From contig OY820591.1 of the NCBI GenBank assembly GCA_963555985.3, positions 2,144,001 to 2,208,000 of the forward strand: 64,000 bases of DNA. Reading direction: 5' to 3'. Shown piece after piece: positions 4,467 to 64,000 of the stretch (the first letter of the stretch is position 1; each line of letters opens with the position of its first letter). The notes under the pieces were generated by a model. It saw nothing but the letters and a program-made list of their open reading frames with translations. It ran no database searches and was not told the origin of the DNA. This DNA is from Dehalococcoidia bacterium. Lineage in GTDB: Bacteria > Chloroflexota > Dehalococcoidia > Bin125. Made by a program: the position numbers and the translations under genes.

Positions 4467-5029
4467 GTCGGGGTCCTTCCTAGGTGCGTTCGCACTGGTT
4501 GGGTGGATCGTTGCCGGCGGAATTTTTTTCCGGCGCGGCAGATTGCGAGGAAACCTAGTGATTTACGGGAGATCGCGCGATTTGGGTGGAAGGTAGTGGA
4601 AGATTTTGGAACGGTGTTGTCAGTTCGGAGCGTCAGCTCCTGTTCGATCTTGTTCGATTCTGTTCGATGGCGTTCGGCCTGTTCGGCTGTGCGGACGGTT
4701 CGGCCTCGTTCGAGTTCGTTCGATTCTGTTCGGCGGCGTTCGGCCTGTTCGAGGGAGATGAGGGGCGACGCGAACGGATTGGCGGATGGATTCCCGCCTG
4801 CGGAGACGTTTGTGTAAGTCGATCGTTCCGTCATTGCCGCGCTCCGCCGCGGCAATCTCGCGGTGAGGGCGACGACGGTGCAGATAACGGCGAGATACCC
4901 GCGGCAAGCGCGGGTATGACGGAGTCTTGATTGGCTCGAGTTTTGCAAAGGTCTCCCTGCGCGGGAATGACGGGATTGCCTGTTGACCGGCTCGTTCAGC
5001 CGCTTTTTCGGCGAGGGTCGAGTGGACAT
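4391..5029 (-). other. Repeat-rich ORF or gene remnant with 10-bp periodic CGAAC and TTCCA runs and an in-frame MITE
   Basis: SD GAGGAG then ATG at 5029; RTESNxxEQE-type repeats shared with the HTH gene at 42188-43123. Confidence 0.45.
4802..4956. mobile_element. MITE-like element inserted in a REP hairpin loop, 4-bp TSD CTGC
   Basis: Ends GGAGACGTTTGTGTAAG...TTTTGCAAAGGTCTCC; CTGC at 4798-4801 and 4957-4960; removal restores GGATTCCCGCCTGCGCGGGAATGAC. Confidence 0.8.
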
Positions 5030-5057
5030 CGGCTCCTCGGTTTCCGTCTGCGACACG

Positions 5058-5069
5058 GAACTCACGTAC
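5058..5069. promoter_or_regulatory. LexA/SOS-like box GAAC-TCAC-GTAC
   Basis: Matches GAAC-N4-GT(T/A)C, ~30 bp upstream of ATG 5029. Confidence 0.5.
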
Positions 5070-5145
5070 TCTCACTAGCGGCGGCGATCAAGGCCGGGAG
5101 TTCACCGATACCTCGCAGGGCGACTGAGGGGAGCGCTTACTTCCG

Positions 5146-6471: not shown

Positions 6472-6750
6472 GTGATCACACACTTCGCTGATCGGCGGCT
6501 TCGAGATTTCCATATGCGGGGAGACCGTCGCAGGTTGCCGCCGCCGATGATCGAAACCATTGAGGAGATTCTGGACGACCTGGATTCGGCCTCGTCGCCA
6601 GAAGACATGAACCAGCCCGGCTATCGACTGCACCAATTGTCGGGAGACATGGCGGGATTCTGGTCTGTTCGCGTCACCCGCAACTGGAGAATCGTGTTTC
6701 GCTTCGACGGACCAGACGTCCGCGATGTACGCTTAATCGACTACCACTAG
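6472..6750 (+). CDS. higB: HigB (RelE-like) toxin
   Basis: YRLHQLSGDMAGFWSVRVTRNWRIVFRF..DYH. Confidence 0.92.
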   Translation: MITHFADRRLRDFHMRGDRRRLPPPMIETIEEILDDLDSASSPEDMNQPGYRLHQLSGDMAGFWSVRVTRNWRIVFRFDGPDVRDVRLIDYH

Positions 6751-6764
6751 GGGGATCAGTCGCT

Positions 6765-7049
6765 GTGACTCGAGCCAATCCAACCCATCCTGGTCGCTCT
6801 CTCTTCCATAGCTGCATTGAGGCGCTCAACCTCACGATGTCCGAGGCAGCGGCGCATCTCAAGGTGGAGGAGGCCGCCCTACAGGCCATCTGCGACGGTC
6901 AGGCGCCGATCACCGCCGACATGGCCGTCCGCTTCGAGCAGGCTTTCGGCAGCACCGCCGAGTTCTGGCTGCGGCGCCAGGCCAGCTACGACCTCGCGCG
7001 AGTGAGGAAGACCTGCGACAAGATCGAGCGTCTCGAAGTCGCGGCCTAA
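6765..7049 (+). CDS. higA: HigA antitoxin (XRE HTH)
   Basis: PTHPG..ITADMAVRFEQAFGSTAEFWLRRQASYDL. Confidence 0.92.
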   Translation: MTRANPTHPGRSLFHSCIEALNLTMSEAAAHLKVEEAALQAICDGQAPITADMAVRFEQAFGSTAEFWLRRQASYDLARVRKTCDKIERLEVAA

Positions 7050-8956: not shown

Positions 8957-9723
8957 CAATCGCCCGCAATCACCCCCGCCAACGCCGACGCCGCGTCCGA
9001 CTCCAAATGATGACCACCCGCGATCTCCACCAACTCCGCATCTCCCAACAACTCCACGTACTGCTGCGCGCACGCCGACGGCACCACCGTGTCCTCCGAC
9101 CCTCGCACGACCAGCGTCTTCACTCGCACGTTCGGCAGCAGATGCGGCAGCGTCTGCGAGTACAGGAAGGGCCGCCACGCCGTCCGCGCCGTCATCTCAC
9201 GATTCGCGTCCCACGCGATCAGCTGCTCCGTACTCGGATCCTCCCCATACAGTTCGTCGAAGTTCGCGGGATCGGCAAAGCAGGACTTCACGTAGTCCGC
9301 GTGCGCCTCGAGGAATTGATCCCGAATCTCCCCCTCATTCGGCTGCAAACCCATTGGATTCACCAGCACCAGACCATCCAGCCGCGCCTGATTGAACGTA
9401 GCCATCTCTACGGCGAGGTACGCGCCGAAACCAAGACCCACCAGGGTCGCCCGATCAACCTCAAGCGCGTCCAGCAGCAGCGACGTCACCGCCGCCAGAT
9501 CACGCACCGAGCGCATCCAGTCCCCCCGCTGCGTCCCGTCCCAGCCGGGCAGCGTGGGCAGGATCACGTCGTGCGTCTGCGACAGCTGCTGATGAAACGC
9601 GAGCCAGCCGGGATTCCCGGTCTCATGGTGGATCACCAGCGCGACCGGTCCCGCTCCGGCCCGCAGCACGCTGATCGGCAAGCCCGCGACTTCAACGGTG
9701 GTTTCGGCTGGAGCGTCTGACAT
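8956..9723 (-). CDS. Alpha/beta hydrolase fold protein (nucleophile Ser absent)
   Basis: PTLPGWDG, LVGLGFGA elbow, VVRGSEDTVVP, GGHH. Confidence 0.85.
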   Translation of the reverse strand: MSDAPAETTVEVAGLPISVLRAGAGPVALVIHHETGNPGWLAFHQQLSQTHDVILPTLPGWDGTQRGDWMRSVRDLAAVTSLLLDALEVDRATLVGLGFGAYLAVEMATFNQARLDGLVLVNPMGLQPNEGEIRDQFLEAHADYVKSCFADPANFDELYGEDPSTEQLIAWDANREMTARTAWRPFLYSQTLPHLLPNVRVKTLVVRGSEDTVVPSACAQQYVELLGDAELVEIAGGHHLESDAASALAGVIAGD

Positions 9724-9857: not shown

Positions 9858-12422
9858 ATGGCAGCGACGGCAACCCCGGAGACCCTGAACGTATTGACGG
9901 AAGCGGAAGCGCAGGCGCGAGCGGCGCAGATTTCGGACGTGTCCTACGAGCTCGCCCTGAGCATCCAGGCCGGCTCAGAGACCTACGACGGCGAACTCAC
10001 CGCGCGTTTCAGCCACGCCGCTCCGGCGGACGGCACCTTCCTCGAATGCACCTCCAAGACAATTCACTCGCTCAGCGTGAACGGCGCAGCCGCTGACGTC
10101 CGCCACGAGCGCAACCGCCTCTACCTGGATGGCGCGTCGCTCGCGGCTGAGAACGAGGTCGTGATCTCCTACACCAACGACTACGACCACATCGGCGCCG
10201 GGCTGCACCAGTTCGTCGATCCCGAAGACGACCGCGAGTACCTCTACACCCACTTCGAGCCGTATGACGCTCACCGCCTCCTCCCCTGCTTCGACCAGCC
10301 CGACATCAAGGCGACCCTCGATCTCACCGTGACCGCGCCCTCCGAATGGCAGGTCGTCGCCAACTATCCGCCGACAGAATCGAACCCAGCCGAACAAGGC
10401 CGAACACGGCACGCCTTCACCACCACGCCGCGCATCTCTACCTATCTGTTCGCGCTGGTGGCCGGGCCGTACGTCCGCTTCGAGGATGCCTGGGAAGACG
10501 TCTCGCTCGGAGTCCTCTGCCGCGAGTCGATCGCGCCACACTTCGACGCGGACGAGTTCTTCGAGGTCACCCGCCAGGGTCTGACCTTCTTCTCCGACTT
10601 CTTCGACTTCCGCTACCCCTTCGACAAGTACGACCAGGTATTCGTGCCCGAATTCAACATGGGCGCGATGGAGAACGTCGGCTGTATCACCTTCTCTGAG
10701 CGCATGATCTTCCGCGACCCTCCGACCGAGTTGCAGCGTCTCAACCGGGCTGAGGTCGTGCTCCACGAGATGGCCCATATGTGGTTCGGCGATCTCGTCA
10801 CGATGCGTTGGTGGAACGACCTCTGGCTGAACGAGTCGTTCGCCACCTACATGGCCTACCTCTCGATGGAACACGCCACCCGCTGGTCGAATTCCGCCTG
10901 GTCCGCCTTCCACGCGCGGATGAAGGCCTGGGCTTACGAGCAGGATCAGCTCCCGACCACCCACCCGATCGCGGGCGAAGTGCCCGACACCGACGCCACC
11001 TTCCTCAACTTCGACGGGATCACCTACGGCAAGGGCGCAGCCGTGCTCAAGCAACTCGTCGCCTTCCTCGGCGCGGACGGCTTCCGCGAGGGGATGCGCG
11101 ACTACTTCCGCACCCACGCCTGGGGCAATACGACCCTCGCCGACTTCCTCGCCGCGCTCGAACGCGGCTCCGGCCGCGAACTCGGGCGCTGGTCGGAGGC
11201 CTGGCTCGAAACCGCCGGCGTCAACACGATCGCGCCCCAGTGGGATGTGGCCGAAGGCGCGGTCAACTCCTTCACGATCCAGCAGACCGCTCCGGCCGAT
11301 CACCCAACCCTGCGCCCTCATCGCACCGAAATCGCCGTCTACGACCGCGCGGACGACGGCCCGCAATTGCGCGACGCCCAGCCCGTCGACATCGACGGTG
11401 CAGCCACCATCATCGAGGAGCTCTCCGGCGCGCCCGCGCCCGCAGCCGTCTTCCCCAATCACGACGACCACGCCTTCGCCAAGATCGCCCTCGACCAACG
11501 CTCGCTCGAATTCGTCCAAGCCGAACTCGATCGCTTCCCCGACAGCTTCCAGCGCCTCCTGCTCTGGCACACGCTCTGGGACATGGTCCGCGACCAACAA
11601 TTCTCCGCAGCCGACTACGCCTCCCTCTGCACCGAGAAGCTGGCCGCCGAAGACACCCTGGAGATCGCCCAAACCGTCGCCTACAACGCGCTCCACGCCG
11701 TCGGCTCGTATCTGCCCGAGGCGATGCGGCTCGACAGCGCCGCCCAGCTCTACCAGTTCGCCCGCGCTCAGCTCTTCGCCGCGACCGAGCCGGACTTCCG
11801 CATCATGTGGTCGCGCGTGATGATTGGCGCGGCGCAGAACGTCGAGCACATCAACGAGGCGCTGCAACTGGTCGACGAAGGCACCGGCATTGACGGCTAC
11901 GAACTCGATCAGGACATGCGCTGGTCGCTGATCACCAAGGCCACCGCCTACGGAATTCCAGGAGGCTTCGAGCGCCTGGAGGCCGAATTGGAGCGCGACG
12001 GCTCCGACCGCGGCCGCCGCGCCGCCGAACAAATCCGAACCTCGCGCCCCGACCCCGAAGTCAAAGCCGCCGCCTGGACTCGCTACCAGGAAGACGCCGA
12101 GACCTCCCTGCAAATGCTCACCGCCTCCATGCACGGCTTCTGGTGGCGTCCCCAGGCGGAGCTCCTGGAGAGCTACACCGATCGCTTCTTCAATGAAATC
12201 CGCAGCGTCTTCGACAAGCGCGACAAGGAGTACGCCTCCCGCTTCTTCGGCGCTCTCTACCCGGGCCAGATGTCCCCCTCGGACATCGTGATTGACCGCT
12301 CCGAAGCCCTCCTCGCCGAGCTCGGAGGCGACCTCGTGATCCTCTCCCGCCCCCTCCGAGAAGCCCTCGACGAAGCCCGCCGCGCCCGAGCCTGCCAAGA
12401 GTTCGCCGCCGCCAATGCCTAG
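9858..12422 (+). CDS. pepN: Aminopeptidase N (M1 family)
   Basis: GAMEN, HEMAHMWFG..LWLNESFA, FDGITYGKG. Confidence 0.97.
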   Translation: MAATATPETLNVLTEAEAQARAAQISDVSYELALSIQAGSETYDGELTARFSHAAPADGTFLECTSKTIHSLSVNGAAADVRHERNRLYLDGASLAAENEVVISYTNDYDHIGAGLHQFVDPEDDREYLYTHFEPYDAHRLLPCFDQPDIKATLDLTVTAPSEWQVVANYPPTESNPAEQGRTRHAFTTTPRISTYLFALVAGPYVRFEDAWEDVSLGVLCRESIAPHFDADEFFEVTRQGLTFFSDFFDFRYPFDKYDQVFVPEFNMGAMENVGCITFSERMIFRDPPTELQRLNRAEVVLHEMAHMWFGDLVTMRWWNDLWLNESFATYMAYLSMEHATRWSNSAWSAFHARMKAWAYEQDQLPTTHPIAGEVPDTDATFLNFDGITYGKGAAVLKQLVAFLGADGFREGMRDYFRTHAWGNTTLADFLAALERGSGRELGRWSEAWLETAGVNTIAPQWDVAEGAVNSFTIQQTAPADHPTLRPHRTEIAVYDRADDGPQLRDAQPVDIDGAATIIEELSGAPAPAAVFPNHDDHAFAKIALDQRSLEFVQAELDRFPDSFQRLLLWHTLWDMVRDQQFSAADYASLCTEKLAAEDTLEIAQTVAYNALHAVGSYLPEAMRLDSAAQLYQFARAQLFAATEPDFRIMWSRVMIGAAQNVEHINEALQLVDEGTGIDGYELDQDMRWSLITKATAYGIPGGFERLEAELERDGSDRGRRAAEQIRTSRPDPEVKAAAWTRYQEDAETSLQMLTASMHGFWWRPQAELLESYTDRFFNEIRSVFDKRDKEYASRFFGALYPGQMSPSDIVIDRSEALLAELGGDLVILSRPLREALDEARRARACQEFAAANA

Positions 12423-14508: not shown

Positions 14509-14587
14509 AACGCCGCACTCCGCTCTACGAAGCCGCTAACCCAAACTGTCACCCTTGCAACACCCCGACCAACCCGGTCCCGCCACA

Positions 14588-14608
14588 GAACACCAGTACA
14601 TATAAGAT
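14588..14608 (+). promoter_or_regulatory. LexA/SOS-like box GAAC-ACCA-GTAC next to -10 TAAGAT
   Basis: Box at 14588-14599, -10 at 14603-14608, upstream of small ORF 14651. Confidence 0.5.
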
Positions 14609-14650
14609 CGACCGCAGCCAACGCCGCACCCACAACCAACGGAACCCGCC

Positions 14651-14833
14651 ATGACCGCAGCAACAGACCTGGACAAACCTGGACTCGCATCTCAATTCCG
14701 CTCAAAACACCCTCGAAATCTAGCCGGATCTGGACGGATCTGGACTTTTCCGGACTACCTGCCGCCGAATTCCCCGCCCACGACGGCAAATTCGCCCCGT
14801 CCAACCACAAATCCCGCGACCGGCCCTACCTGA
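14651..14833 (+). other. Small ORF or remnant with 10-bp periodic GGAC motifs
   Basis: GGAC at 14671/14681 and 14732/14742/14752; SGRIWT peptide similar to ORF 63301. Confidence 0.35.
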
Positions 14834-14873
14834 CCAACCCTTGCCCGACCCGAGCAGGCTCTAGGCTGTCGGC

Positions 14874-41914: not shown

Positions 41915-42059
41915 GGAGACCTGCGCGTAATCCCGGATTCCGTCATTCCAGGCTTGACCTGGAATCTCGTCCGGAATTGCGGGCTCTCTGGTCGGAGCGA
42001 GATTCCAGCGTTCGCTGGAATGACGAGAGCAGCGGGAATGCCAATTTGCAAAGGCCTCC
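41915..42059. mobile_element. MITE-like element carrying a REP doublet
   Basis: GGAGACCTGCGCGTAAT...ATTTGCAAAGGCCTCC; ~100-bp core nearly identical to 45948-46050. Confidence 0.8.
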
Positions 42060-42109
42060 GCAGGCGGGGAGTGAGGGCGAGGGGCCCTCCTGTTACCCAG
42101 ATAACACTT

Positions 42110-42142
42110 TCGTACTACTCATATATTCGGAATATATATACT
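42110..42142 (+). promoter_or_regulatory. AT-rich promoter/operator: palindrome ATATATTC-G-GAATATAT overlapping -10 TATACT
   Basis: Palindrome at 42121-42137, -10 at 42137-42142; GAATATATATAC is a degenerate SOS-like box. Confidence 0.55.
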
Positions 42143-42187
42143 ATGGCAAGAATCGCGTCACAGCTCAACACAGGAGAGCGAGCAAGC

Positions 42188-43123
42188 ATGACCTTTCCCC
42201 GCTACCCCAACCCCGCCCGCCGCGCCAAACTGCTCCAAGCCCACCAACTCCGGCAACAAGGACTCACCCTCCGACAGATCGCCCAGGAGATGGGCTGCGC
42301 ACACTCCACCGTCGCCGCCTACCTCAAAGACTTCGAACTCTTCCGCGCCGACTTGATCCAGGAACTCGCCGCCGACCAACTCGTCGTCCACCTGCTCCAA
42401 CTCGCCGATCTCAACGACGAACACCACGACCGCCGCCGCGCCGACATCCGCGAATTGCGCCTGCTGCTCACGGCCGTGCCCCACATCCGCCGCGACGAGT
42501 CCGAACGCACCCAAGAACTCGTCCAGGGCGGCGTCAGCGTCGACCGCTACGGTCAACGCTACCCCAGGCCCGAACGCTTCTTCCCCCCCACACCCGAAGA
42601 GATCGAGCAGATCAACCAACCCCACGCCGAACCGAACGCCGACCTCGACCCCGACCAAGCCCTCGTCTGCACCCCCGAACCCGCTCGAACAGCACCGAAC
42701 AGCACCGAACAAGAACTTTCCGCTTCCCCTCTCCCCCCCTTGCAGGGGAGATGTCCCGTAGAGCCTGCCCCCGCGCACGCGGGGGACAGAGGGGGGGCGC
42801 CGCCCGCCAAACACGCCGAACACACCGACGAACCCGCCCGAACAAAATCGAACAAGCCCGAACAAGAAACCGCCCAAACCCCAGCCCAGGACGGCGAATC
42901 GGCCGAAACCGGCCAGATTTCCCCCGACCCCGCCCTCCAACAGGCCATCGACGACATCGACCGCCGGCTCAAAGACATCCTCAGCGACCGAGACTGGCTC
43001 AACGACTACCCGTCCCGCAACCCCCGGCACCCCGAACGCCGGAAAGCCCTGCGCCTCGTCGAGCAAAAGCAAGCCCTGCTCGCCCAACTCCACGCGGAAC
43101 CGGAGGCCCCCGACGCAGCCTGA
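42188..43123 (+). CDS. HTH-domain protein with embedded REP hairpin and 10-bp periodic CGAAC runs
   Basis: SD AGGAGA; LRQQGLTLRQIAQEMGCAHSTVAAYL HTH; low-complexity linker 42670-42930. Confidence 0.75.
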   Translation: MTFPRYPNPARRAKLLQAHQLRQQGLTLRQIAQEMGCAHSTVAAYLKDFELFRADLIQELAADQLVVHLLQLADLNDEHHDRRRADIRELRLLLTAVPHIRRDESERTQELVQGGVSVDRYGQRYPRPERFFPPTPEEIEQINQPHAEPNADLDPDQALVCTPEPARTAPNSTEQELSASPLPPLQGRCPVEPAPAHAGDRGGAPPAKHAEHTDEPARTKSNKPEQETAQTPAQDGESAETGQISPDPALQQAIDDIDRRLKDILSDRDWLNDYPSRNPRHPERRKALRLVEQKQALLAQLHAEPEAPDAA

Positions 43124-43149: not shown

Positions 43150-43316
43150 TCAGGGAGACCCTTGCGAAAGTCGCCGGTCCGCGGATCACGTCATTCCCGC
43201 GAACGCGGGAATCCATGCAGCGATCGAGTGGGACGGGAATTCCCGCGTTCGCAGACCGTTGCAACCCTCTATATCCGTCATTCCCGCGCAGCCTGCCCCT
43301 GCGCAGGCAGGGGGGC
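43150..43316. repeat. Nested REP/MITE cluster
   Basis: GGAGACCCTTGCGAAAG end, GTCATTCCCGCGAACGCGGGAATCC hairpin, GCAGACCGTTGCAAC end, AGCCTGCCCC insert. Confidence 0.8.
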
Positions 43317-45867: not shown

Positions 45868-46127
45868 TCCATCATTCCCGCCTACGGAGACCGTTGCAAA
45901 AGTCCGCTCTCCTCTCCCCCTTGAGGAGGCCTATGCAAAATCCCCATTTCCGTCATTCCAGGCTTGACCTGGAATCTCGTCCGGAATTGCGGGCTATCTG
46001 GTCGGAGCGAGATTCCAGCGTTCGCTGGAATGACGAGAGCAACGGGAATGTGATTTACGCGCAACTCTCCTTGAAGGGGAGATGCCGCAGCCTGCCCCTG
46101 GCCTGAACAGGGGGCAGAGGGGGTGAG
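45868..46127. repeat. Nested REP cluster
   Basis: REP arm, GGAGACCGTTGCAAAAG end, double hairpin carrying a MITE and an AGCCTGCCCC insert. Confidence 0.8.
45925..46070. mobile_element. MITE-like element with 4-bp TSD TTGA
   Basis: TTGA at 45921-45924 and 46071-46074; ends GGAGGCCTATGCAAAAT / ATTTACGCGCAACTCTCC. Confidence 0.82.
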
Positions 46128-46153: not shown

Positions 46154-46230
<77 letters not shown>

Positions 46231-47875: not shown

Positions 47876-49573
47876 TTACGTCTGCGGGTCCGCTCTGAGC
47901 CGCTCGGTCGGCTCGCCAGCGGTCCACTCGGCGTGATTCTGGAGGTAGTACTCGTAGGCGTCGGCCAGAGCGAGCCAGGAGGCTTCGATCACGTCGCTGG
48001 AGGAGCCGACCGTGTTCCAGACGCGCTCGCCGTCGGTGGACTCGATCAGAGCGCGAACCTGGGCTTCGGTGCCGGCGTCGGTATCGATGATGCGGACTTT
48101 GTAATCGAGCAGTGAGACTGTGCTGAGCTCCGGGTAGGCCTCTTCGAGACCCTTGCGCGCAGCCTGATCGAGCGCGTTGACGGGGCCGTTGCCGTCAGCT
48201 GTGGTGTGGAACATCTCGTTGCCGACGCGAATCTTGGTCACAGCTTCGGCGAGCATCATCGAGTCCCCGCCGGCGCCCCAGCCGTTCTGTCCACTCTCAG
48301 CGTTGGCAGCGCTCAGAGTCGGTCGGCGGCGTTCGACGACGAGGAAGTCGTCGAGCTCGAAGGGCGCGGCGTAGCCCGGACGGGCGCGCATGGCGAGCAG
48401 CTCAAAGGAGGCTTCCGCCCCCTCGTACTGGAAGCCGCGGCTTTCCATGTGTTTGACCTGTTCGAGCAGTTTGGTCGTCTCGGCTGCGGTGAGCGGGAGG
48501 TCGTGTCCGCGCTCGGCGAGTTTGTAGGCGATGTTGCGCTTGCCGGAGAGCTCCGAGACCAGGACGCGCTGGTCGTTGCCGACCACCTGCGGATCGATGT
48601 GTTGGTAGGTGTTGGGGTCTTTAACGATGGCGGCGACGTGATAGCCGGCCTTATGCGCGAAGGCGGAAGCGCCGACGTAAGGCGATTGCCCGTTGAGAGG
48701 ACGGTTGGCGAGCTCCGCCACGAAGCGGCTGGCGGCGGTGATTTCGCGCAGTTGATCCTCGCGGACGACTTCAATGCCCATCTTGAGCTGGAGATTGGGC
48801 ACAATGCTGGAGAGATTGGCGTTGCCGCAGCGCTCGCCATAGCCGTTGAGGCAGCCCTGCACTTGCTCCACGCCGGCGGCGACGGCGGCGAGACTGTTGG
48901 CGACCGCGAGCTCGCAGTCGTTGTGGGTGTGGATGCCGAGCCGGGCCTCGGGGATCGCCTCGCGCACCGCGAGCACGGCGTCGGCGACCTCGTTGGTCAT
49001 CGCGCCGCCGTTGGTATCACAGAGGATCAGGTAGACGGCGCCGGCGCGATGGGCGGCGCGAAGCACGTTGAGGGTGTAATCGGGGTCTTCGCGGTAACCG
49101 TCGAAGAAGTGCTCGGCGTCGAAGTGGACTTCGCGTCCGAGCGAGGCCATGTAGCCGACCGACTCGCGCACCATCGCCAGGTTCTCTTCACGGGAGGTGT
49201 TGAGAACGCTCTGCACCTGGGAGGCGATCGCCTTGCCGACGAAAGTGACGACGGGGGTTTCGGCTTCCCGCAGGGCGACGATGTTGAAGTCGGTCTCGAC
49301 ATCGGATTCAGGCTTGCGGGTACCGCCGAAGGCGACGAGCTTGGCTTGCTGCAAGGGAGTGGTCTTCATCTGCTCGAAGAAGGCCTTGTCCTTCTCATTC
49401 GAGCCGGGGAATCCGCCCTCGACATAGTGGATGCCGAGCTGGTCGAGGCGGCGGGCGACGGCGATCTTGTCCTGCAAGGAGAAGGCGATGCCCTCCATCT
49501 GAGAACCGTCGCGGAGCAGAGTGTCGTAGAGCACCACGCTAGGCGCAGTGTCAGCTTGGGTTGGGTTGGTCAT
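47876..49573 (-). CDS. cimA: (R)-citramalate synthase
   Basis: YDTLLRDGSQ, YVEGGFPGSN, DAEHFFDG, HTHND, GYGERCGN, SELSGK, FQYEGAEASFEL, GNGPVNALD. Confidence 0.93.
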   Translation of the reverse strand: MTNPTQADTAPSVVLYDTLLRDGSQMEGIAFSLQDKIAVARRLDQLGIHYVEGGFPGSNEKDKAFFEQMKTTPLQQAKLVAFGGTRKPESDVETDFNIVALREAETPVVTFVGKAIASQVQSVLNTSREENLAMVRESVGYMASLGREVHFDAEHFFDGYREDPDYTLNVLRAAHRAGAVYLILCDTNGGAMTNEVADAVLAVREAIPEARLGIHTHNDCELAVANSLAAVAAGVEQVQGCLNGYGERCGNANLSSIVPNLQLKMGIEVVREDQLREITAASRFVAELANRPLNGQSPYVGASAFAHKAGYHVAAIVKDPNTYQHIDPQVVGNDQRVLVSELSGKRNIAYKLAERGHDLPLTAAETTKLLEQVKHMESRGFQYEGAEASFELLAMRARPGYAAPFELDDFLVVERRRPTLSAANAESGQNGWGAGGDSMMLAEAVTKIRVGNEMFHTTADGNGPVNALDQAARKGLEEAYPELSTVSLLDYKVRIIDTDAGTEAQVRALIESTDGERVWNTVGSSSDVIEASWLALADAYEYYLQNHAEWTAGEPTERLRADPQT

Positions 49574-49616
49574 GTCGGGGTCGTCCGTTGGTAGAGGAGA
49601 GGAGTGCTGGGAGCGT

Positions 49617-49703
49617 CTAGCAGCCAATCGCAACCGCCGCGCGATTGGACGCGGCGGCGTAGCGCTCCTTGATCCGTATGACGCTGGCGGTGGCGCCGGT
49701 CAT
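49617..49703 (-). promoter_or_regulatory. Putative leader peptide/attenuator upstream of cimA
   Basis: 28-aa uORF MTGATASVIRIKERYAAASNRAAVAIGC with overlapping alternative hairpins. Confidence 0.4.
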
Positions 49704-49751
49704 AGGACGACTCACTCTCCACAGAGAGCGTACACCCTCCGACGCTAGCGC

Positions 49752-50924
49752 CTAGTGCCGGAACAGCCGCCGCCCCGTCAGCGCCATCACCATCCCGTAA
49801 CCGTTCGCCGCCTCAATCACGTCCTGATCCGCGATCGAACCCCCCGGCTGCAACACATACTGCGCCGCACTCGCCTGCGCACGATCGATGTTGTCGCGGA
49901 AGGGCACGAAGGCATCATGGCTGAGCACGGTCGAGAATCGCCCGATCCATTCACGACGGCTCTCTGCCGAGAGCGGCCCCGGCCAAGGATCGAGCTGGGC
50001 TTGGAGGCGATCCTGTTCGGGCTGGGAGAGTTCGTGCCAGGCGATGTACTGCTCGCGCGCGGTGAAGCGATCGGGGCGGCGCAGGCCTTTGACGAATTGC
50101 AAGTTGAGCACATCGGGATGCTGCTGGAGCATCCAGCGGTCGGCTTTGGCGCAGGCGATGCGGGTGCAGTGGATGCGGGACTGCTGGCCCGCGCCAAGAC
50201 CAATCACTTGGCCGTCGGCGGCGAGACAGACGGAGTTGGATTGGGTGTACTTGAGCGCGATCGTGGCGATCTTGAGGTCGCGTCGCGCGTCGGCGCTGAA
50301 GTCAGTTCGTTCGGTGACTACGTTGCTGAAGATTGAGTCGTCGATCGGGGTGAGATCGGCGGGCTGCTCCAAGCGCACGCCGAAGAGATCGCGCGCTTCG
50401 CGGTCGGGGGCTGTGAAGAACGGATCCGCCTCGAGCACGAGGTAGCGCCCGCCCTTCTTCTTGGCGAGGATCGCCAGTGCCTCCTGGTCGTAGGCGGGCG
50501 CGATGATGCCGTCCGAGACTTCGCGGCGCAGCACCTGGGCCAGATAGACATCTACGCGGTCGGAGACGGCGGCGAAGTCTCCGTAGGCGGAGACGAGATC
50601 GCCGCCGCGCGCGCGCACGTAGGCGGCGGCGACGGGTGAGAGTTCGCGCTTCTCAACTTGGTAGGCGCGTGTCAAGGACTCGCTGAGCGGGAGTCCGATC
50701 GCCGCGCCAGCCGGGGAGACGTGTTTGAAGGAGGCTCCGGCGGGCAGATCGAAGGCGTCGCGCAGCTCGCTGACGAGTTGCCAGGCGCTGAGCGCGTCGA
50801 GCAGGTTGATGTAGCCGGGCTGACCGTTGAGTACGCGGAAGGGGAGACGCTCAGCGAGCGCCGCGGCAGAGGCGGGTGCCTGATGGGGGTTGAGTCCGTA
50901 GCGGAGCTCGACTGATTCACTCAT
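49752..50924 (-). CDS. purH: AICAR transformylase (PurH C-terminal part only, no IMP cyclohydrolase domain)
   Basis: Starts at LRYGLNPHQ; SFKHVSPAG, KYTQSNSV, GQQSRIHC, PFRDN, QPGGS, RLFRH. Confidence 0.92.
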   Translation of the reverse strand: MSESVELRYGLNPHQAPASAAALAERLPFRVLNGQPGYINLLDALSAWQLVSELRDAFDLPAGASFKHVSPAGAAIGLPLSESLTRAYQVEKRELSPVAAAYVRARGGDLVSAYGDFAAVSDRVDVYLAQVLRREVSDGIIAPAYDQEALAILAKKKGGRYLVLEADPFFTAPDREARDLFGVRLEQPADLTPIDDSIFSNVVTERTDFSADARRDLKIATIALKYTQSNSVCLAADGQVIGLGAGQQSRIHCTRIACAKADRWMLQQHPDVLNLQFVKGLRRPDRFTAREQYIAWHELSQPEQDRLQAQLDPWPGPLSAESRREWIGRFSTVLSHDAFVPFRDNIDRAQASAAQYVLQPGGSIADQDVIEAANGYGMVMALTGRRLFRH

Positions 50925-50942
50925 GTGGCAAGGAACCGGCGG

Positions 50943-51824
50943 CTATCCAACGAGATCCTCGAGCGCGGATTCGATTTCGAGGTGTTGGAAGCGGTAGCCG
51001 GAGTCGAGGGTGCGGGTAGGGATGATGCGCTGGCTGGCGAGCAGGACGGAGGCGCCTTCGCCGAGCATCAGCTTGAGCGCGATGGGGGGTACAGGGGCAA
51101 AGGCGGGACGCTTGAGCGCGCGTCCCAGCGCGCGCGAGAAGTCGGCATTGCGGACGGGATGGGGAGCGGTGACGTTGAGCACGCCTTCGACGCCGCTGCT
51201 CTGGAGCGCGTGCATGATCACGCCGACCGCATCTTCAATGTGGACCCAACTCCACCAGGCGCGGCCGAGACCGATCGGGCCGCCCAGACCAAGTTTGAAG
51301 GGCAGCAAGAGTCGTTCGAGCGCGCCTCCATCGGCGGAGAGGATGATCCCAAAGCGCAGGGTGGCGGTGCGGACGCCGGCATTGGAGGCGGCCTCTTCCC
51401 ATTCCTGGCAGAGGCGGGCGAGGAAGTCGTTGCCCGGCGGAGCGGCTTCCGAGCTTTCGCGCTCGACGCGTGAGCCGTAGTAGCCGATCGCGGAGGCGGA
51501 GACGAGCGCGCCCGGTTTTTCGCCGGATTCCTGGATTGCATTCACGACCTGGGCTGTGGACTCAATTCGGCTGTCGCGCAAGGCGGCCTTGCGGGAAGCG
51601 GACCAGCGCTGGTCGACGATGCCCTCACCGGCGAGATGGACGACGCCGGCGGCGCCGGCGACGGCGTCAGTGAGTCCGTCCCAGCCGATCCAGTTGACGC
51701 CGCCGACGGCGGCGTGGGCGCGGGGATTGCGTGAGACTGCGATCACGCTGGTACCGCGCCGGCGCAGCTCCTGTACGAGCGCGCCGCCGATCAGGCCGCT
51801 GGCTCCGGTGACTACCACATGCAT
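50943..51824 (-). CDS. TIGR01777 / YfcH-like NAD-dependent epimerase
   Basis: VTGASGLIG, HLAGE, SASAIGYYG, WVHIED, SQR..P. Confidence 0.92.
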   Translation of the reverse strand: MHVVVTGASGLIGGALVQELRRRGTSVIAVSRNPRAHAAVGGVNWIGWDGLTDAVAGAAGVVHLAGEGIVDQRWSASRKAALRDSRIESTAQVVNAIQESGEKPGALVSASAIGYYGSRVERESSEAAPPGNDFLARLCQEWEEAASNAGVRTATLRFGIILSADGGALERLLLPFKLGLGGPIGLGRAWWSWVHIEDAVGVIMHALQSSGVEGVLNVTAPHPVRNADFSRALGRALKRPAFAPVPPIALKLMLGEGASVLLASQRIIPTRTLDSGYRFQHLEIESALEDLVG

Positions 51825-51869
51825 CGTGAGCCTCCTCGCGTGCGTCTCTACGACGGTTGGGGTTGCGTG

Positions 51870-52400
51870 CTAGCCGCCCCGGTTCGGCATCACCGGGTCG
51901 AGGCCGTGCATTCCGCGTATGAGGTTGATTTCGCCTCGATGTCCGTTGAGGTGAGTGCAGAGGTGGAGCGTAATCGACTCGCCCAGGGTCTCGGTACGGT
52001 CGCCGAGTTGGATTTCGCGGCTGAGGTCGTCGTCGCTGAGGGAGTCGAGGAAGGCGTGGGTCGACTCGTTGACGGCGTCCTGGTAGGAGCAGAAGGCATC
52101 CATGTCGCCGATGGCGACTGTGGACGCCTCTTCGGTGCTCTGGCCGGTGCCGAAGCCGCGCTCGGGCAGGCCGGTCTTCTCGGCCCAACCACCTTCGCGC
52201 CAGATTTCCTGCTTGCCCTGCCACGCGCCCTGTACGAGCAGGTCTTCGACCCGGGCGGCGTGCCAGAGCACCCAAGCGACGGAGTGGCTTTCGCCGTCGG
52301 GGACGAAGTGAAGCTGTTCGGCGGTCTGTCCCGTGCGAGCGTCACGGAAGCCGCCGTGAATGAAGCTGAGCATGTCCTTGATGTAGCCAACAGCGCTCAT
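51870..52400 (-). CDS. DinB family protein
   Basis: SVAWVLWH..RVED, H.NGHRGEI. Confidence 0.85.
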   Translation of the reverse strand: MSAVGYIKDMLSFIHGGFRDARTGQTAEQLHFVPDGESHSVAWVLWHAARVEDLLVQGAWQGKQEIWREGGWAEKTGLPERGFGTGQSTEEASTVAIGDMDAFCSYQDAVNESTHAFLDSLSDDDLSREIQLGDRTETLGESITLHLCTHLNGHRGEINLIRGMHGLDPVMPNRGG

Positions 52401-52456
52401 CGGACTTCCTTTCGCCGATCGCGGGCGCTCTGAAGCCCGCAGCTGTTTCCAGTCGG

Positions 52457-53293
52457 TCAGCGTCCCGTCGAGCCGGCGCTGTCCGGGTCGTCGTCGCTGG
52501 CGGCGTCCGCGGGCGGGGCGAGTAGATCGACCAGCCGCCGCATGCGCCGGAGCGAGTTTCGGATCCTGTCGATGTCTGCCGGATCGAGGTTGAGCGTAAG
52601 CGCGTCAATGGAGGCCAAGGCAGCGTCCGTCTCGGTGAGTTCGGCACGCGCCGCATCGGCGTCAGCCGGCGATCCCTTCCAAACGAGCGGTCCATCCTCG
52701 TCGGGCAGCAACTCGCTCAGCCGTTCAAGCATTGTCTGCGCCTCGCGGATGCGCTGGAGCGCACGCAGACCGTCGATCGAAGCGCGCAGGAGATCGGAAT
52801 CGTCGGGCGCTTCGGCCTCGTCCTCGTCGGGCGATGCCAAGACCTCTTCGATCTCGCTCAAGACATTGGGGTCAAGCTGGGGCATCTCAGGCGCGGAAGG
52901 CTCCGCTTCGATTGGCGGCTCGAGGCCGAAAGCCTTGCCCAGTTCTTCGGCGATGCGGGGATCGAGGCCGCTCGCCTCGGTGAGGCGCTGGGCCAGTTCT
53001 CGGAGCTGATCCTCACCCACGCCCATTGAGGTGAGCGTCTCGCGGACGAGTCGTTGAACTTCGGCGTGATCCTGTCGGATCAGGGCGTCGGCCAGTTCGA
53101 GTTGGGTCTCGATGGCGCGGAATCCGAGCCGGCGTTGGGTATCGTCGCGCTGGAGTAGGGTGGACATCAAGCGCGTGAAGAGGGTCGTAGTGCGCGCGAT
53201 TCGCATCCGGTCGTCCGGATGCTCGGGAAAGTCGCCGGTGACGGAGACTTCAAAGCCGGTGCGCTTGTCGGTGGCCACGTATTGGTCGGGCAT
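52457..53293 (-). CDS. Hypothetical protein
   Basis: ATG 10 nt after the upstream stop; ordered N-terminus and acidic helical C-terminus. Confidence 0.65.
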   Translation of the reverse strand: MPDQYVATDKRTGFEVSVTGDFPEHPDDRMRIARTTTLFTRLMSTLLQRDDTQRRLGFRAIETQLELADALIRQDHAEVQRLVRETLTSMGVGEDQLRELAQRLTEASGLDPRIAEELGKAFGLEPPIEAEPSAPEMPQLDPNVLSEIEEVLASPDEDEAEAPDDSDLLRASIDGLRALQRIREAQTMLERLSELLPDEDGPLVWKGSPADADAARAELTETDAALASIDALTLNLDPADIDRIRNSLRRMRRLVDLLAPPADAASDDDPDSAGSTGR

Positions 53294-53303
53294 GAGCTGA
53301 ATC

Positions 53304-54263
53304 CTACCGCCGTGCGGCCGCTTGGGAGAGGAAGCCGCTGACGGCTTCGAGGAAACCGGGCGTGTTTTGGGAGTGCACGTTGTGGCCGCAGTCGGGCACT
53401 TCCACCAGGGCGGCGTTGGGCAGATCGTCGACGAAGCGTTCGGCCGCATCGGCTTCGAGGATGTTGGAGCGTTCACCCCGCACCAGCAGGGTGGGGCCGC
53501 TAAAGGCGTGAAAGCCGTCGGCCACGTCGCGGCGGTCAGCGGCTGGGCGGCGGAAGGAGGGATCGTGGAGGATACGATCCGACTTGCTGACGTATTTGCC
53601 GTCGGAGCGTTGGACGAGGTTGTAGCGCGCGGTTCGCTCCATGTGCTCGCGTGAGCGGAAGGGATCGTAGGCGGCGACACGATCGATGAACTCATCGAGG
53701 TGGTCGAACTCGACGTTGCGGACGACGAAGTTGCGGATCTGCTCAGCACCGCGCTGAGAGACTTCGGGGCCGACGTCGACGAGCACGACCGCCGCCGGCA
53801 GATCGGGGCGGCGAGCGGTGAGGCGCATCGTGACCATGCCGCCCATCGAGTGACCCATCACGATCGGGCGTTGGAGCCTCTCTTCGGCAATCAGGCTGAG
53901 CGCGTCGGAGGCCATCTGGTCGGGGCCGTAGTCGGCGTCGCGGGCCCACTCGCTGTCGCCGTGTCCGCGCTGGTCGAGGGCGAGGATGTGGAAGCGGTCG
54001 GCGAGCTGGAGCGAGACCAGATCCCAGGAATGCGCCGACTGATTGCCGCCGTGCAGGAGCAGCAAGGGCGTCATGCCCGGCTCGCCCCATTCGAGTAGGT
54101 GCAGGCGGAGGTGATTGATCACGACATTGCGCGAGACGTAGCGGATGCTGGGGGAATGCGAAATGCCGAGATCGGCGGCGCTCTCGCAGAGACTGGCGAA
54201 TTCGTCGGTGCTGGTGAGGTCAACCGCTTCGGCGGTTGGGGCGAAGGTGTTCAGATAGGTCAC
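53304..54263 (-). CDS. Alpha/beta hydrolase
   Basis: LLHGG, DQRGHGDS, GHSMGG, GHNVH. Confidence 0.92.
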   Translation of the reverse strand: MTYLNTFAPTAEAVDLTSTDEFASLCESAADLGISHSPSIRYVSRNVVINHLRLHLLEWGEPGMTPLLLLHGGNQSAHSWDLVSLQLADRFHILALDQRGHGDSEWARDADYGPDQMASDALSLIAEERLQRPIVMGHSMGGMVTMRLTARRPDLPAAVVLVDVGPEVSQRGAEQIRNFVVRNVEFDHLDEFIDRVAAYDPFRSREHMERTARYNLVQRSDGKYVSKSDRILHDPSFRRPAADRRDVADGFHAFSGPTLLVRGERSNILEADAAERFVDDLPNAALVEVPDCGHNVHSQNTPGFLEAVSGFLSQAAARR

Positions 54264-63127: not shown

Positions 63128-63300
63128 CGACGGCTCCGGTTCGATCCTAGGGCCTGTTTACACAACCACGAGCGCGGTCGGCCCGCACGAGCGCTGGTCT
63201 CGAGGCTGAGCCTCGGCGCTCCCGTCCCCGCCCTCCGCAACCGAGCCGAAACCGGGTATGCTCAGAACATATACGCGCACGAATCCAATGGGAGACCGCT

Positions 63301-63531
63301 GTGTCCCACAAACGACTCGCTCCAAACCTGAACAGTGCTGGACATGCCCGGATTCTCCTGGAAAAAATCTGCCCGAATCGAGATCAATCCGGACAGATCT
63401 GGACAAATCTGGACAAATCCAGACCCTCGAACGCACGATCCTCAGCGCTCGCCAGGAGATCCGCTCAATTCCTCCGAAATTCTCCCGCCAAACAGCGCCG
63501 ACGCACTTCGCGCAGTCTGAACAGGTCCTAG
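63301..63531 (+). other. Small ORF or remnant with 10-bp periodic ATC/GGAC array
   Basis: -10 TATGCT at 63257, AGAACATAT half box, SD GGAGA, GTG start; SGQIWT peptide. Confidence 0.35.
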
Positions 63532-63607: not shown

Positions 63608-64000
63608 ATGGCAGGACGACTGGACGGCAAGGTTGCGGTGATCACCGGAGCCGGCTCGGGGATGGGTCGCGCGACGGCGGAACTGTTCGCCGAGGAAGGC
63701 GCGCGGGTGGTGATCGTCGACCGCTGGGCCGAGCGCGCCGAGGATGCGGCCGCAGGCATCGGTTCGGAGGCCATCGCCGTCACTGCCGACGTCGCCAATG
63801 GTGAGGACGTCCAGTCCATGTATGCCGCCGCCGTGAGTCACTTCGGCGGGGTCAACGTGATCTACAACAACGCCGGCATTGGCGGGCGCGAGGACAACAT
63901 CCGCGATTGTCCTGAAGAAGTGTTCGACGAGATCATGTCGATCAACCTGCGCGGCGTCTGGCTGGGGATGAAGTACGGCATTCCCCACTTGGAGCGCGCC
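63608..64000 (+). CDS. SDR family oxidoreductase, 3'-truncated by window edge
   Basis: MAGRLDGKVAVITGAGSGMG, NNAG, INLRG. Confidence 0.93.
   Translation, partial: MAGRLDGKVAVITGAGSGMGRATAELFAEEGARVVIVDRWAERAEDAAAGIGSEAIAVTADVANGEDVQSMYAAAVSHFGGVNVIYNNAGIGGREDNIRDCPEEVFDEIMSINLRGVWLGMKYGIPHLERA

Follow-up and report, generated by a model that had tools for sequence, protein, structure and literature searches.

The four loci of our window (the whole 64-kb stretch of DNA analysed here) in which a GAAC-type box accompanies short motifs repeated every 10 bp are members of a single ancient family of dispersed paralogues in Dehalococcoidia/Chloroflexota, and the arrays of this family are maintained by selection on nucleotides, not on the peptide. 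An earlier note on this DNA had taken the loci, designated a to d, for independent examples of a shared layout; all four are copies or derivatives of the one family, and the association between box and arrays therefore follows from common descent. Reasoning from sequence comparison, we tentatively posit, at a likelihood somewhat short of even, that the arrays would be phased sites for the family's own HTH protein and that the box would be a separate, LexA-like operator.

Period-10 arrays in the window

The period-10 arrays exceed chance. Seven loci carry a 5-mer in at least three copies at exactly 10-bp spacing (k=5); by the same measure, the non-codon periods 7, 8, 11, 13, and 14 give 0, 0, 1, 0, and 0 loci and the codon-multiple periods two to four loci each, while 100 dinucleotide-preserving shuffles of the window yield a mean of 0.30 period-10 loci and a maximum of 2. 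The string GAAC-N4-GTAC occurs three times versus 0.48 expected, a count reached by 0 of 100 shuffles; the third match, at 7849, has no array adjoining, and GAAC-N4-GTTC has 0 occurrences in the window. The coordinates given earlier for loci a to d all hold on recheck. A CGAAC triple also lies within an unrelated aminopeptidase gene (10381-10405), for which we have no explanation.

The HTH gene, its protein, and its arrays

Locus a (42188..43123, plus strand) is an intact member of an HTH gene family confined to Chloroflexota, with 94 relatives. Its 311-aa product matches Pfam HTH_23, and an AF2 model predicts an N-terminal HTH with a helical hairpin (helices 9-112), a disordered linker (pLDDT <50 at residues 165-243), and a C-terminal two-helix domain (helices 248-302). 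Upstream lie a promoter element, GTTACCCAGATAACAC (42092..42107, plus strand), which aligns with an element in most homologous upstream regions, and a candidate promoter/operator box, GGAATATATATACTAT (42129..42144, plus strand; PWM score, 17.3), a degenerate copy of the family box; the string GAATATATATAC occupies 42131-42142, and TATACT occupies 42137-42142. Across the family, the upstream element reads GTCGCCCA..ACAC or GTCAACAGCAACAC and is placed ~21-23 nt 5' of the box.

Two arrays, each of four units at exact 10-bp spacing, occupy the plus strand of the gene. Array 1 (42676..42711; CGAAC starts at 42676/86/96/706) codes PEPARTAPNSTEQ and is found in some homologues; array 2 (42829..42864; CGAAC(A) units, starts at 42829/39/49/59) codes EPARTKSNKPEQ, is universal in the family, and shows per-base conservation of 86-100%. 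The arrays correspond to codons 163-176 and 214-227, within the pLDDT <50 segment. Between them, in frame, sits a REP-like palindromic element (42722..42800, plus strand) with one copy, at 42745, of a core, GGGGAGATG, that occurs five times in the window versus 1.0 expected. Similar REP-like elements are translated within the linkers of relatives, and the linker tolerates in-frame insertions. We find no common helical phasing between arrays 1 and 2: across family loci, their distances range from 99 to 240 bp and share no common remainder. A conserved tail 3' of array 2 (42865..42920, plus strand), coding ..NPAQDGxSA.., aligns with window positions 14762-14871 and shows some synonymous-site conservation, Pro-232 being CCA in 20/21 genes.

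The gene is flanked by an inverted pair of REP-like repeats (left, 42001..42054; partner, 43160-43213; no strand assigned) with 54-nt arms that are 74% complementary. These are members of a general GTCATTCC..GGAAT repeat family and are probably unrelated to the mechanism; we accordingly rejected them as transposon inverted repeats.

The HTH domain matches generic HTH models only (Pfam HTH_23; PHROG). A PDB sequence/profile search returned no relevant relatives of the protein, Foldseek gave 0 matches at E ≤ 1e-3 in PDB and BFVD, and we found no longer fused forms; a search with the C-terminal domain gave seven matches, three to family members and four to repetitive proteins, and so no relative beyond the family. 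Terminase-type matches are limited to the generic HTH (PHROG E 1e-4, residues 14-55; an Atlas score of 0.83 is a lead only). Small-terminase genes with an internal pac site offer a comparison. In phage P1, the site is located in pacA, as 4+3 clusters. In the small-terminase genes of P22 and P1, as is proposed here, the cis site of a DNA-binding protein falls within that protein's own gene. P1 pac has seven hexanucleotide repeats and is made up of clustered short repeats (PMC11260489). Unlike pac loci, however, the HTH gene has no terminase large subunit, capsid, or other phage genes nearby; its neighbours are hydrolase, amidohydrolase, and MFS genes, and with matches at the HTH level only we rejected a small terminase with an internal pac site.

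Conservation in related genomes

The 94 relatives occur in several copies per genome (P0001, P0007, P0009, and P0094 share one 3.15-Mb contig) and come from Chloroflexota in every case in which a source is named. In the window itself, tblastn with the HTH protein, a paralogue search of the kind that the earlier note had proposed, finds no further gene copies. For comparison, we took 28 homologous loci from 12 genomes. The complete unit spans ~1.2 kb, and its linker-coding DNA holds between one and three arrays, each with 3-4 CGAAC(A) units; a box, AGAACATAT(G/A)TAC, lies 45-58 nt 5' of the ATG in 28/28 homologous gene copies from the related genomes. At least two CGAAC motifs at exact 10-bp spacing are present in 25 of 29 ORFs (the 28 homologues and the window's copy). 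Among the four exceptions, L012 and L022 are frameshifted or truncated ORFs with arrays persisting downstream, L021 has CGATCA units in place of CGAAC, and L027 is cut off by a contig end. The layout of a box followed by 10-bp arrays is real and conserved in homologues from 12 other genomes.

The period is conserved as well. Of 124 successive CGAAC pairs within 30 nt, 81 are spaced by 10, 2 by 9, and none by 11. The flanks of the 28 loci show no excess of CGAAC pairs at 10 bp (2+2 pairs, like other distances).

Selection on nucleotides rather than peptide

Codon usage in array 2 separates the two levels at which the repeats could be conserved. In 26 genes, with columns 218-226 set by protein alignment, Arg-218 is encoded by CGA in 24/24 genes versus a background of 19%; Thr-219 is ACA in 23/26 and ACG in 3/26, with an ACA background of 8%; and Glu-225 is GAA in 25/25 versus 67%. 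Where the amino acid varies, the nucleotides stay: residue 221 is Pro in 14 genes, Ser in 11, and Ala in 1, and its codon is NCG in 26/26, while residue 224 alternates among Thr, Ser, Pro, and Ala with a codon that is constantly NNC. An AAC codon is present at the array 2 columns in 25 of the 26 genes. Of 126 conserved columns, only four show a minority codon in 80% or more of the genes, 218 and 219 among them. The peptide, in turn, is dispensable, since the arrays fall in a region of pLDDT <50 in which in-frame REP-like insertions are tolerated, and the arrays persist in non-coding copies (b, c, d, L005, and L012). The proposal that the signal lies in the nucleotides and not in the protein is thus borne out and, with DNA letters rather than protein conserved, the arrays look like a built-in binding site.

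These data bear directly on the notion that the repeats are a protein motif (R-T-x-P-N-x-x-E-Q) or a slippage/contingency repeat that switches frame, which we consider barely credible. It is true that R218, T219, N222, and E225 are nearly invariant in protein alignments and that, with a 10-bp unit that is no multiple of 3, gain or loss of a unit would shift the frame. However, synonymous sites are fixed, the amino acid varies at 221 and 224 where nucleotides are constant, and the motif falls in a predicted disordered segment; the codon evidence largely refutes a protein-level motif. As to slippage, the same arrays occur in non-coding copies, the spacer letters differ from unit to unit, and copies do not differ in unit number as a phase-variable locus would: L002, L006, L007, and L015 all have three units at 582-602 and L017, L018, and L019 all have three units at 741-761. 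Identity of both unit number and position within these two sets, whose members are 87-97% identical, led us to reject a contingency locus.

HTH-less derivatives

Loci b, c, and d are HTH-less, internally deleted members of the family that retain promoter and arrays. They had been presented as ORFs, but the "ORFs" in question (b, 4391-5065 on the minus strand; c, from 14651; d, from 63301) match no Pfam family and sit in intergenic gaps between annotated genes, and these three of the four are probably not genes. All three loci lie just 5' of unrelated genes and are co-oriented with them.

Locus b (4467..5145, minus strand) is an intergenic derivative with ~11 CGAAC units and REP insertions, collinear with other HTH-less elements. 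Its arrays, GTTCG x4 at 4641-4676, GTTCG x5 at 4698-4742, and TGGAA (TTCCA) x3 at 4587-4611, match the DNA profile of the gene at E values of 2e-4 and 1.5e-3. The exact box reported there, GAACTCACGTAC at 5058-5069, is present, as are the arrays, but it is weak and runs opposite to them. Locus c (14548..14873, plus strand) is identified by a profile match and by its promoter layout: an upstream element (14548-14563), a box (14587-14608) that includes the exact GAACACCAGTAC at 14588-14599 followed by ATATAAGAT, CTGGAC arrays at 14663-14684 and 14725-14757 (10-bp arrays at 14663-14684 and 14725-14745, plus one further CCGGAC unit), and a tail (14762-14871) matching the stretch of the gene beyond its arrays (profile E 9.6e-5). 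With a full HTH-type promoter, the same 23-nt element-box spacing, a gene-like tail, and no HTH coding part, locus c vindicates the phrase "genes or remnants" used in the earlier description. Locus d (63264..63525, plus strand), upstream of an SDR gene starting at 63608, combines a box, AGAACATATACGC (63264-63277; PWM score, 19.7), with a ATCTGGACAA-type array in which ATC recurs six times at 10-bp spacing (63367-63419); its match to the gene profile is weak (E 0.17).

Loci b, c, and d form a collinear set with L005 (17930-18122) and L012 (19557-19759). The 3' arrays of b, L005, and L012 consist of TTCCA or CCTGAAAAAA units, and loci c and d carry CTGGAC units. A profile built from these five elements detects no new HTH-less elements in 630 kb, and pairwise global alignments of HTH-less elements with genes of the family are too noisy for placing deletion end points.

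The promoter box and LexA

The family box, AGAACATAT(G/A)TAC(T/G), overlaps a -10-like hexamer, represented in the window's copy by TATACT/TACTAT. It invites comparison with LexA boxes, which in cyanobacteria follow RGTACNNNDGTWCB, as given in the cited part of PMC3091678. In the form AGAACATATGTACT, the family box fits this sequence on its reverse complement and is one base off the Gram-positive GAAC-N4-GTTC, although either consensus may not be that of the host. Unlike a LexA box, it is never a perfect palindrome and its right half varies: among the 28 boxes, the right half-site is GTAC, ATAC, or AATC, and GTTC once only (L023, with 5-nt spacing). Departures from the LexA consensus are seen in the window's copy (GGAATATATATACT) and in several others.

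A host factor, with LexA as the obvious candidate, could bind both the box and the arrays, the CGAAC units being LexA-type half-sites in direct repeat (GAAC-N6-GAAC) and the loci being SOS-controlled or titrating LexA. Besides the fit of the box to the cyanobacterial sequence, this idea draws on the alpha-proteobacterial LexA sites, which the same source, in the part cited, describes as direct repeats, GAAC-N7-GAAC (PMC3091678), and on the rarity of strong boxes outside the family: only 5 of 45 PWM matches scoring at least 13.5 lie outside it, in 566 kb, so that a small regulon fits better than a general promoter. We nonetheless judge it distinctly unlikely. The right half of the box is variable, with GTTC in 1/28; the box in the window itself is degenerate (GGAAT); the direct repeats are spaced by 10 rather than 11; and LexA would not account for variant arrays of TGGAC and CGATC. 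A single mononucleotide shuffle of these loci is enough to yield 10 PWM matches at or above 13.5, so weak boxes mean little. No suitable ORF with a RecA Walker or LexA S24 motif and no uvr gene turned up in the 630 kb examined (the window plus 566 kb), and the consensus to which the box is compared may belong to other hosts. Our search of the literature on the Dehalococcoides/Chloroflexi LexA box and on CGAACA direct repeats found no account of the family.

Mobility and probable concerted evolution

The family had been suspected of being a selfish element. However, its loci are syntenic across genomes, which argues against current mobility: L010, L016, L020, L021, L026, and L028 share flanks across six genomes, and shared flanks also unite L005/L014/L022/L023, L002-L011, and L009-L015. 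We rejected a recently mobile element on the basis of these syntenic copies and an insertion sequence or transposon because no transposase catalytic domain is present and the ends of the repeated unit differ between copy pairs. Paralogues within one genome (OZ253456) are 87-95% identical, whereas the syntenic orthologues L002-L011, L009-L015, and L006-L008 are 78-86% identical, with flanks at 89-94%. Paralogues that are more alike than syntenic orthologues are read here as a sign of concerted evolution.

What the arrays may do

In the reading we favour, the arrays would be protein-binding sites in phase with the helix, arranged head to tail along a single DNA face and most likely occupied by the family's own HTH protein, and the box, LexA-like in sequence, would be a distinct operator controlling expression. 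If its own protein occupies the arrays, the gene carries its own cis site, like plasmid rep genes with internal iterons. None of our computations links CGAAC to the HTH domain, and the recognition helix of L021 shows no obvious change although its units have become CGATCA. Moreover, one CGAAC-specific protein cannot explain all arrays, given the CTGGAC, TTCCA, and CCTGAAAAAA arrays of the HTH-less loci, and no cognate protein for variant arrays is evident, because all four paralogues on the window's contig encode RT..N..E.

Arrays of this geometry have precedents. BldC sits head to tail on four direct repeats spaced by one helical turn (PMC5859096). The family shares with BldC and with OmpR/PhoB-type regulators two to four short direct repeats one helical turn apart, which in those systems are bound cooperatively on one DNA face (PMC5859096). 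BldC, however, is a 68-residue MerR-like winged HTH with sites in target-gene promoters; the candidate sites of this family are embedded in coding sequence, and the 311-aa product has a generic HTH_23 match only and no receiver domain.

A second precedent comes from pSK41 Rep, a 319-aa protein whose N-terminal domain binds four Rep boxes central in rep, whose linker is encoded by origin DNA, and whose C-terminal domain recruits DnaG, according to the cited portion of PMC5703833. Within that portion (PMC5703833), the likeness extends to size (~310-320 aa), to the order of an N-terminal DNA-binding/oligomerisation domain, a dispensable linker, and a small helical C-terminal domain, and to ~4 direct repeats in linker-coding DNA, which in pSK41 are bound by the protein's own N-terminal domain. 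Central direct repeats in dispensable-linker DNA, a feature by which RepA_N systems are recognised, are thus found in the HTH gene, but a plasmid or mobile-element context, another such feature, is not: RepA_N systems are plasmid-borne, while this family is chromosomal, syntenic, and multi-copy. The repeats differ too, being 6-bp units at a 10-bp period here and semi-palindromic iterons with a poly-A tract there, and the HTH protein is without RepA_N (PF06970) or a DnaD-like fold or sequence (Pfam, PDB profile search, and Foldseek).

One specific form of the favoured reading would make the family a RepA_N-like mini-replicon, integrated into the chromosome at several sites and silent or damage-induced, whose initiator would bind iterons inside its own gene. 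The parallels in architecture and size (311 versus 319 aa, central repeats, repeat-encoded linker) speak for it, as does the multi-copy state, and the HTH-less copies would then be origin-only or titrating sites. We hold it very unlikely all the same: apart from the missing RepA_N or DnaD-like domain, no AT-rich unwinding element adjoins the arrays (among 30-mers of the unit, GC content is lowest in the promoter, 0.23, and next lowest in array 2 itself, 0.40), copies sit at syntenic metabolic-gene loci in up to six genomes, the window holds no plasmid, phage, or integrase genes, and a chromosome with several additional active origins would bear a high cost.

The arrays could instead act in RNA: CGAACA or variant motifs, single-stranded and regularly spaced, would be recognised by an RNA-binding protein or a small RNA, and the HTH-less copies would serve as leader or sponge RNAs from the same promoter. 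Such an element would account for arrays that are all on the sense strand, downstream of the box and promoter, and for HTH-less copies that keep exactly the promoter and the arrays; the array regions are also C/A-rich, G-poor, and mostly unpaired in predicted folds, and a hairpin, GATCTCC..GGGAGATC, 3' of the arrays is common to L005 and L012. We find this rather unlikely, however, because an exact 10-nt period has no obvious RNA rationale and equals the helical repeat of DNA, the shared strand follows from common descent and hence is not independent evidence, fold z-scores are inconsistent (-2.9, -2.0, -1.7, -0.7, -0.6, and +0.1), and b and c lack the hairpin. Rfam matches in the window at the gathering threshold are to tRNA only, and loci a and b (at E ≤ 10 or E ≤ 1), L005, and L012 give no Rfam matches.

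Returning to binding by the family's own protein, we can extend it into a bolder picture, which we regard as strongly doubtful. The cassettes would be pairs of a protein and its own site at no fewer than five conserved chromosomal positions, each with an oligomerising HTH protein, a phased loading array, and a LexA-like operator, and would function as (i) damage-inducible auxiliary origins or (ii) DNA-bridging hubs that join copies. Physical pairing of copies, if true, would explain the homogenisation of paralogues by gene conversion.

Concluding remarks

The family provides a clear case of a cis-acting nucleic-acid signal within a protein-coding region, one that has persisted in paralogues whose DNA identity is only ~60%. 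A "peptide motif" conserved in a disordered linker can be the mere imprint of a DNA motif, and HTH-less derivatives are expected to yield spurious ORFs from gene callers. To our knowledge, almost no regulatory biology is experimentally known in this uncultured Chloroflexota clade. If the HTH protein binds the arrays in its own gene, the family would parallel, on the chromosome, those plasmids that carry the origin inside rep, and it would open DNA organisation, replication, or SOS-type control to testing in Dehalococcoidia.

Arrays and boxes in the window

The layout described in the earlier note, a GAAC-N4-GTAC-like promoter box followed by short motifs repeated every 10 bp, is confirmed, and its coordinates for all four loci proved correct when the sequence was read again. 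A mechanical count found seven sites at which one 5-mer occurs three or more times with a spacing of exactly 10 bp: 4587, 4641, and 4698 in locus b, 10381 outside the four loci, 42676 and 42829 in locus a, and 63391 in locus d. The same count at control periods of 7, 8, 11, 13, and 14 returned 0, 0, 1, 0, and 0 sites, codon-multiple periods returned 2 to 4, and 100 dinucleotide-preserving shuffles gave a mean of 0.30 and a maximum of 2, versus 7 in the window; Tandem Repeats Finder independently listed the same arrays. GAAC-N4-GTAC was seen three times against 0.48 expected, and GAAC-N4-GTTC does not occur in the window. One GAAC-N4-GTAC match, at 7849, falls within a 710-aa minus-strand ORF (7046–9178) that has no Pfam family and no array nearby.

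Scanned against Pfam, 94 ORFs no shorter than 150 aa, chosen from the 124 listed, portray an ordinary chromosomal stretch in which genes for CoA-transferase III, hydrolases, and oxidoreductases are numerous; CoA-transferase family III has at least nine paralogues in the 64 kb, alongside luciferase-like, enolase-superfamily, and amidohydrolase genes. Locus a alone among the four is a gene with an assigned family (ORF 42188–43123, an HTH_23 match). The “ORF” of locus b sits in a 679-bp intergenic gap between minus-strand genes for a metallo-β-lactamase-fold protein (3693–4466) and a luciferase-like protein (5146–6399); a MOSC gene and ORF 14874 flank locus c, and locus d is found upstream of an SDR gene starting at 63608. 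The short ORFs of loci b, c, and d match no Pfam family. A HigB-like toxin gene (PF05015, E 2.6e-15) and the small HTH_3-like ORF after it (6472–7049) probably form a type II toxin-antitoxin pair. Coding strands in the window are strongly C-rich, with a GC skew of about -0.2 for plus-strand genes and a positive skew for minus-strand genes (8000–46000 compared with 48000–54000, with tRNA-Pro at 46154–46230), and the cumulative skew reaches its minimum near 45–46 kb, where gene orientation converges.

An HTH gene family at conserved positions

A search at E <= 1e-3 linked the locus a protein to 94 relatives, and all those with a source name come from Chloroflexi/Chloroflexota MAGs. Several are found together on one contig, a 3.15-Mb contig carrying the window's protein and three paralogues, and a scan of species-representative genomes recovered 28 loci in 12 Dehalococcoidia/Chloroflexota MAGs, with at most five per genome. 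An AlphaFold model (69-sequence alignment, mean pLDDT 72) places an N-terminal HTH that runs into a long helical hairpin (residues 9–112), a small β hairpin beyond it, a low-confidence stretch at residues ~151–243 (pLDDT mostly below 50), and two confident C-terminal helices (residues 248–302). Pfam, PHROGs, and a PDB sequence profile yielded a generic HTH at most, Foldseek against PDB and BFVD gave no matches at E <= 1e-3, and the best ESM Atlas score, 0.83, is a lead only; we found neither longer fused forms nor relatives of the C-terminal domain outside the family.

Within a genome, the repeated unit spans ~1.2–1.5 kb, with 91–99% identity between some copies and unrelated flanks. Across genomes, at least five synteny groups emerge from collinear similarity of the flanks: L010/L016/L020/L021/L026/L028 (six genomes), L005/L014/L022/L023, L002-L011, L009-L015, and L024-L025. 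Paralogues within OZ253456 are 87–95% identical and syntenic orthologues 78–86%, despite flanks at 89–94%; wherever both could be compared, same-genome paralogues are closer. Together, the closer paralogues and conserved positions suggest an old multi-locus family under concerted evolution, not recent transposition, and the syntenic placement of the copies disfavors the earlier proposal of a selfish element.

Two REP-like palindromic families are present in the window: the core GGGGAGATG..AGAGGGGG was seen five times against 1.0 expected (14481, 25608, 26491, 42745, and 46076), a second type, GTCATTCC..GGAAT, recurs, and REP-like sites also lie at 41942–41965, 45952–45975, and 43186–43252. One first-family copy is translated within the HTH ORF, and second-family copies form 54-nt inverted repeats on either side of the gene. 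In one genome, tandem repeats of ~108 bp lie directly upstream of the HTH unit (L017 9493–9800, L018 9043–9822, L019 9601–9824), their copy number differing among these paralogous loci.

Constraint on nucleotides

CGAAC units at exact 10-bp spacing are present in 25 of 29 ORFs, the window's copy included, usually as three or four units in one to three arrays. The note's interpretation is supported in part: these arrays, with the HTH-less derivatives considered below, bear out its suggestion that phased sites are carried by the genes of an HTH family or by their remnants. The four exceptions comprise two truncated ORFs with arrays surviving downstream (L012 and L022), one interrupted by a contig end (L027), and L021, which has CGATCA units at the corresponding places. 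In this syntenic orthologue, both arrays (10580–10790) read CGATCA for CGAACA and belong to a ~120 bp tandem duplication that includes a REP-like element; its promoter box is also weakened, to CAAACATATATAC.

Among 124 successive CGAAC pairs at most 30 nt apart, 81 are spaced by 10, 2 by 9, and none by 11. Spacer letters vary while those of CGAAC(A) stay constant, and in array 2, the universal one, per-base conservation across its three units is 86–100% in 21 non-redundant genes. As a guard against circularity, codon columns were taken from the protein alignment of 26 genes, not from the motif. Column 218 is Arg in 24 of 26 genes and CGA in all 24 (background, 19% of Arg codons); column 219 is Thr in all 26, with 23 ACA and 3 ACG (ACA background, 8%); column 221 is Pro in 14, Ser in 11, and Ala in 1, always NCG (CCG background, 21% of Pro; TCG, 13% of Ser); column 224 is Thr, Ser, Pro, or Ala, always NNC; and column 225 is Glu in 25 of 26, always GAA (25/25; background, 67%). 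A minority codon prevails in at least 80% of genes at 4 of 126 conserved-residue columns, two of them being 218 and 219. What looks in protein alignments like a near-invariant peptide, R-T-x-[P/S]-N-x-x-E-[Q/H], thus reflects three CGAACA units, each translated in a different frame. The constraint thus acts on nucleotides, at an exact 10-bp period, and falls in the coding DNA of a dispensable linker: both arrays lie where the AlphaFold model predicts disorder, and the linker accepts in-frame REP-like palindromic insertions (core at 42745).

An M1 aminopeptidase gene (9858–12422) contains three CGAAC at exactly 10 bp, coding SNPAEQGRT, and a further CGAAC pair at 10 bp near its 3' end (12026–12041); in 630 kb, no other array of this kind lies outside the HTH family.

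The constraint is also kept in copies without coding parts. Two further HTH-less elements lie in the flanks of other genomes (L005 17930–18122 and L012 19557–19759, both minus strand), and these and loci b, c, and d are collinear. In each, the box is followed by CGAACA-type units and then by another array of three units at 10 nt, with a core that varies among the elements (TTCCA in b, CTGGAC in c and d, CCTGAAAAAA in L005 and L012); next come a stretch that forms a hairpin in L005 and L012 and an A-run, the latter observed in b, L005, and L012. A full-gene DNA profile matches the locus b arrays (E 2e-4 and 1.5e-3), the locus c tail (14762–14871, E 9.6e-5, aligned to the gene segment after array 2), and, weakly, locus d (E 0.17); in locus c, the upstream element precedes the box by 23 nt, as in HTH genes. 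Judged by sequence, the noncoding loci are derivatives of the HTH gene. Each of the five stands just upstream of an unrelated gene in the same orientation; those downstream of the L005 and L012 elements are putative genes for an NhaA-like antiporter and an ABC permease. The association between box and array posited at the outset is real, and it follows from common descent in one repeat family.

The promoter box

Each of the 28 homologous loci has AGAACATAT(G/A)TAC(T/G), or AGAACATATAATC, 45–58 nt before the ATG, and most add a second element, GTCGCCCA..ACAC or GTCAACAGCAACAC, ~23 nt upstream of the box; the window's box at 42129 is a degenerate copy, GGAATATATATACT. With a position matrix from 15 distinct boxes, the three best window matches are 63264 (19.7, locus d), 42129 (17.3, locus a), and 14595 (13.9, locus c), scores near 13.5 being weak alone, since 10 matches at that level also arose when the 566 kb of loci were shuffled once. 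Of 45 matches at or above 13.5 in those loci, 30 lie upstream of HTH genes, 10 are the same boxes on the opposite strand, and 5 fall elsewhere; the box is therefore near family-specific and not a general promoter motif. The reverse strand of the consensus fits the cyanobacterial LexA box RGTACNNNDGTWCB, and the consensus is one base off the Gram-positive GAAC-N4-GTTC (LexA boxes as given in PMC3091678 and PMC3323433); LexA of this lineage may use it. Neither recA nor lexA was found in the 630 kb comprising the window and the 28 loci. Three strong box-like sites outside the family mark candidate regulon members of the same regulator: L003 18701, ~40 nt ahead of an ORF with an apparently DnaX-like N-terminus; L008 17540, 17 nt before an ORF for a small coiled-coil membrane protein; and L017 8794, ~250 nt upstream of a putative tRNA gene.

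A proposed cis site within its own gene

We posit that, along one face of B-DNA, the CGAAC units offer phased binding sites to a protein that would assemble head to tail, most likely the HTH gene's own product. Against this reading stand the variant arrays of the HTH-less copies and L021, which have no evident cognate protein, and the CGAAC triple (10381–10405) within the unrelated aminopeptidase gene. The uniform sense orientation of the arrays also counts against it and would suit an action at the RNA level, which we consider unlikely. For protein binding at the DNA level, several precedents exist. parS lies inside spo0J and lac O2 inside lacZ. The N-terminal domain of the 319-aa pSK41 Rep, as described in PMC5703833, binds four Rep boxes centrally within rep, its central linker is origin-encoded and dispensable, and its C-terminal domain binds DnaG; BldC, according to PMC5859096, forms a cooperative head-to-tail filament on four direct repeats one helical turn apart; and PMC11260489 places the P22 pac site within its small-terminase gene and gives P1 pac as seven hexanucleotide repeats. 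Because the defining domains were tested for and not found, membership in the RepA_N, terminase, or BldC families is ruled out, and the HTH family stands outside all three. As far as literature searches on the Dehalococcoides/Chloroflexi LexA box and on CGAACA direct repeats show, the system is undescribed; architecturally, it is a new form of an arrangement known elsewhere, a DNA-binding protein with its cis site, here a predicted one, inside the gene that encodes it.
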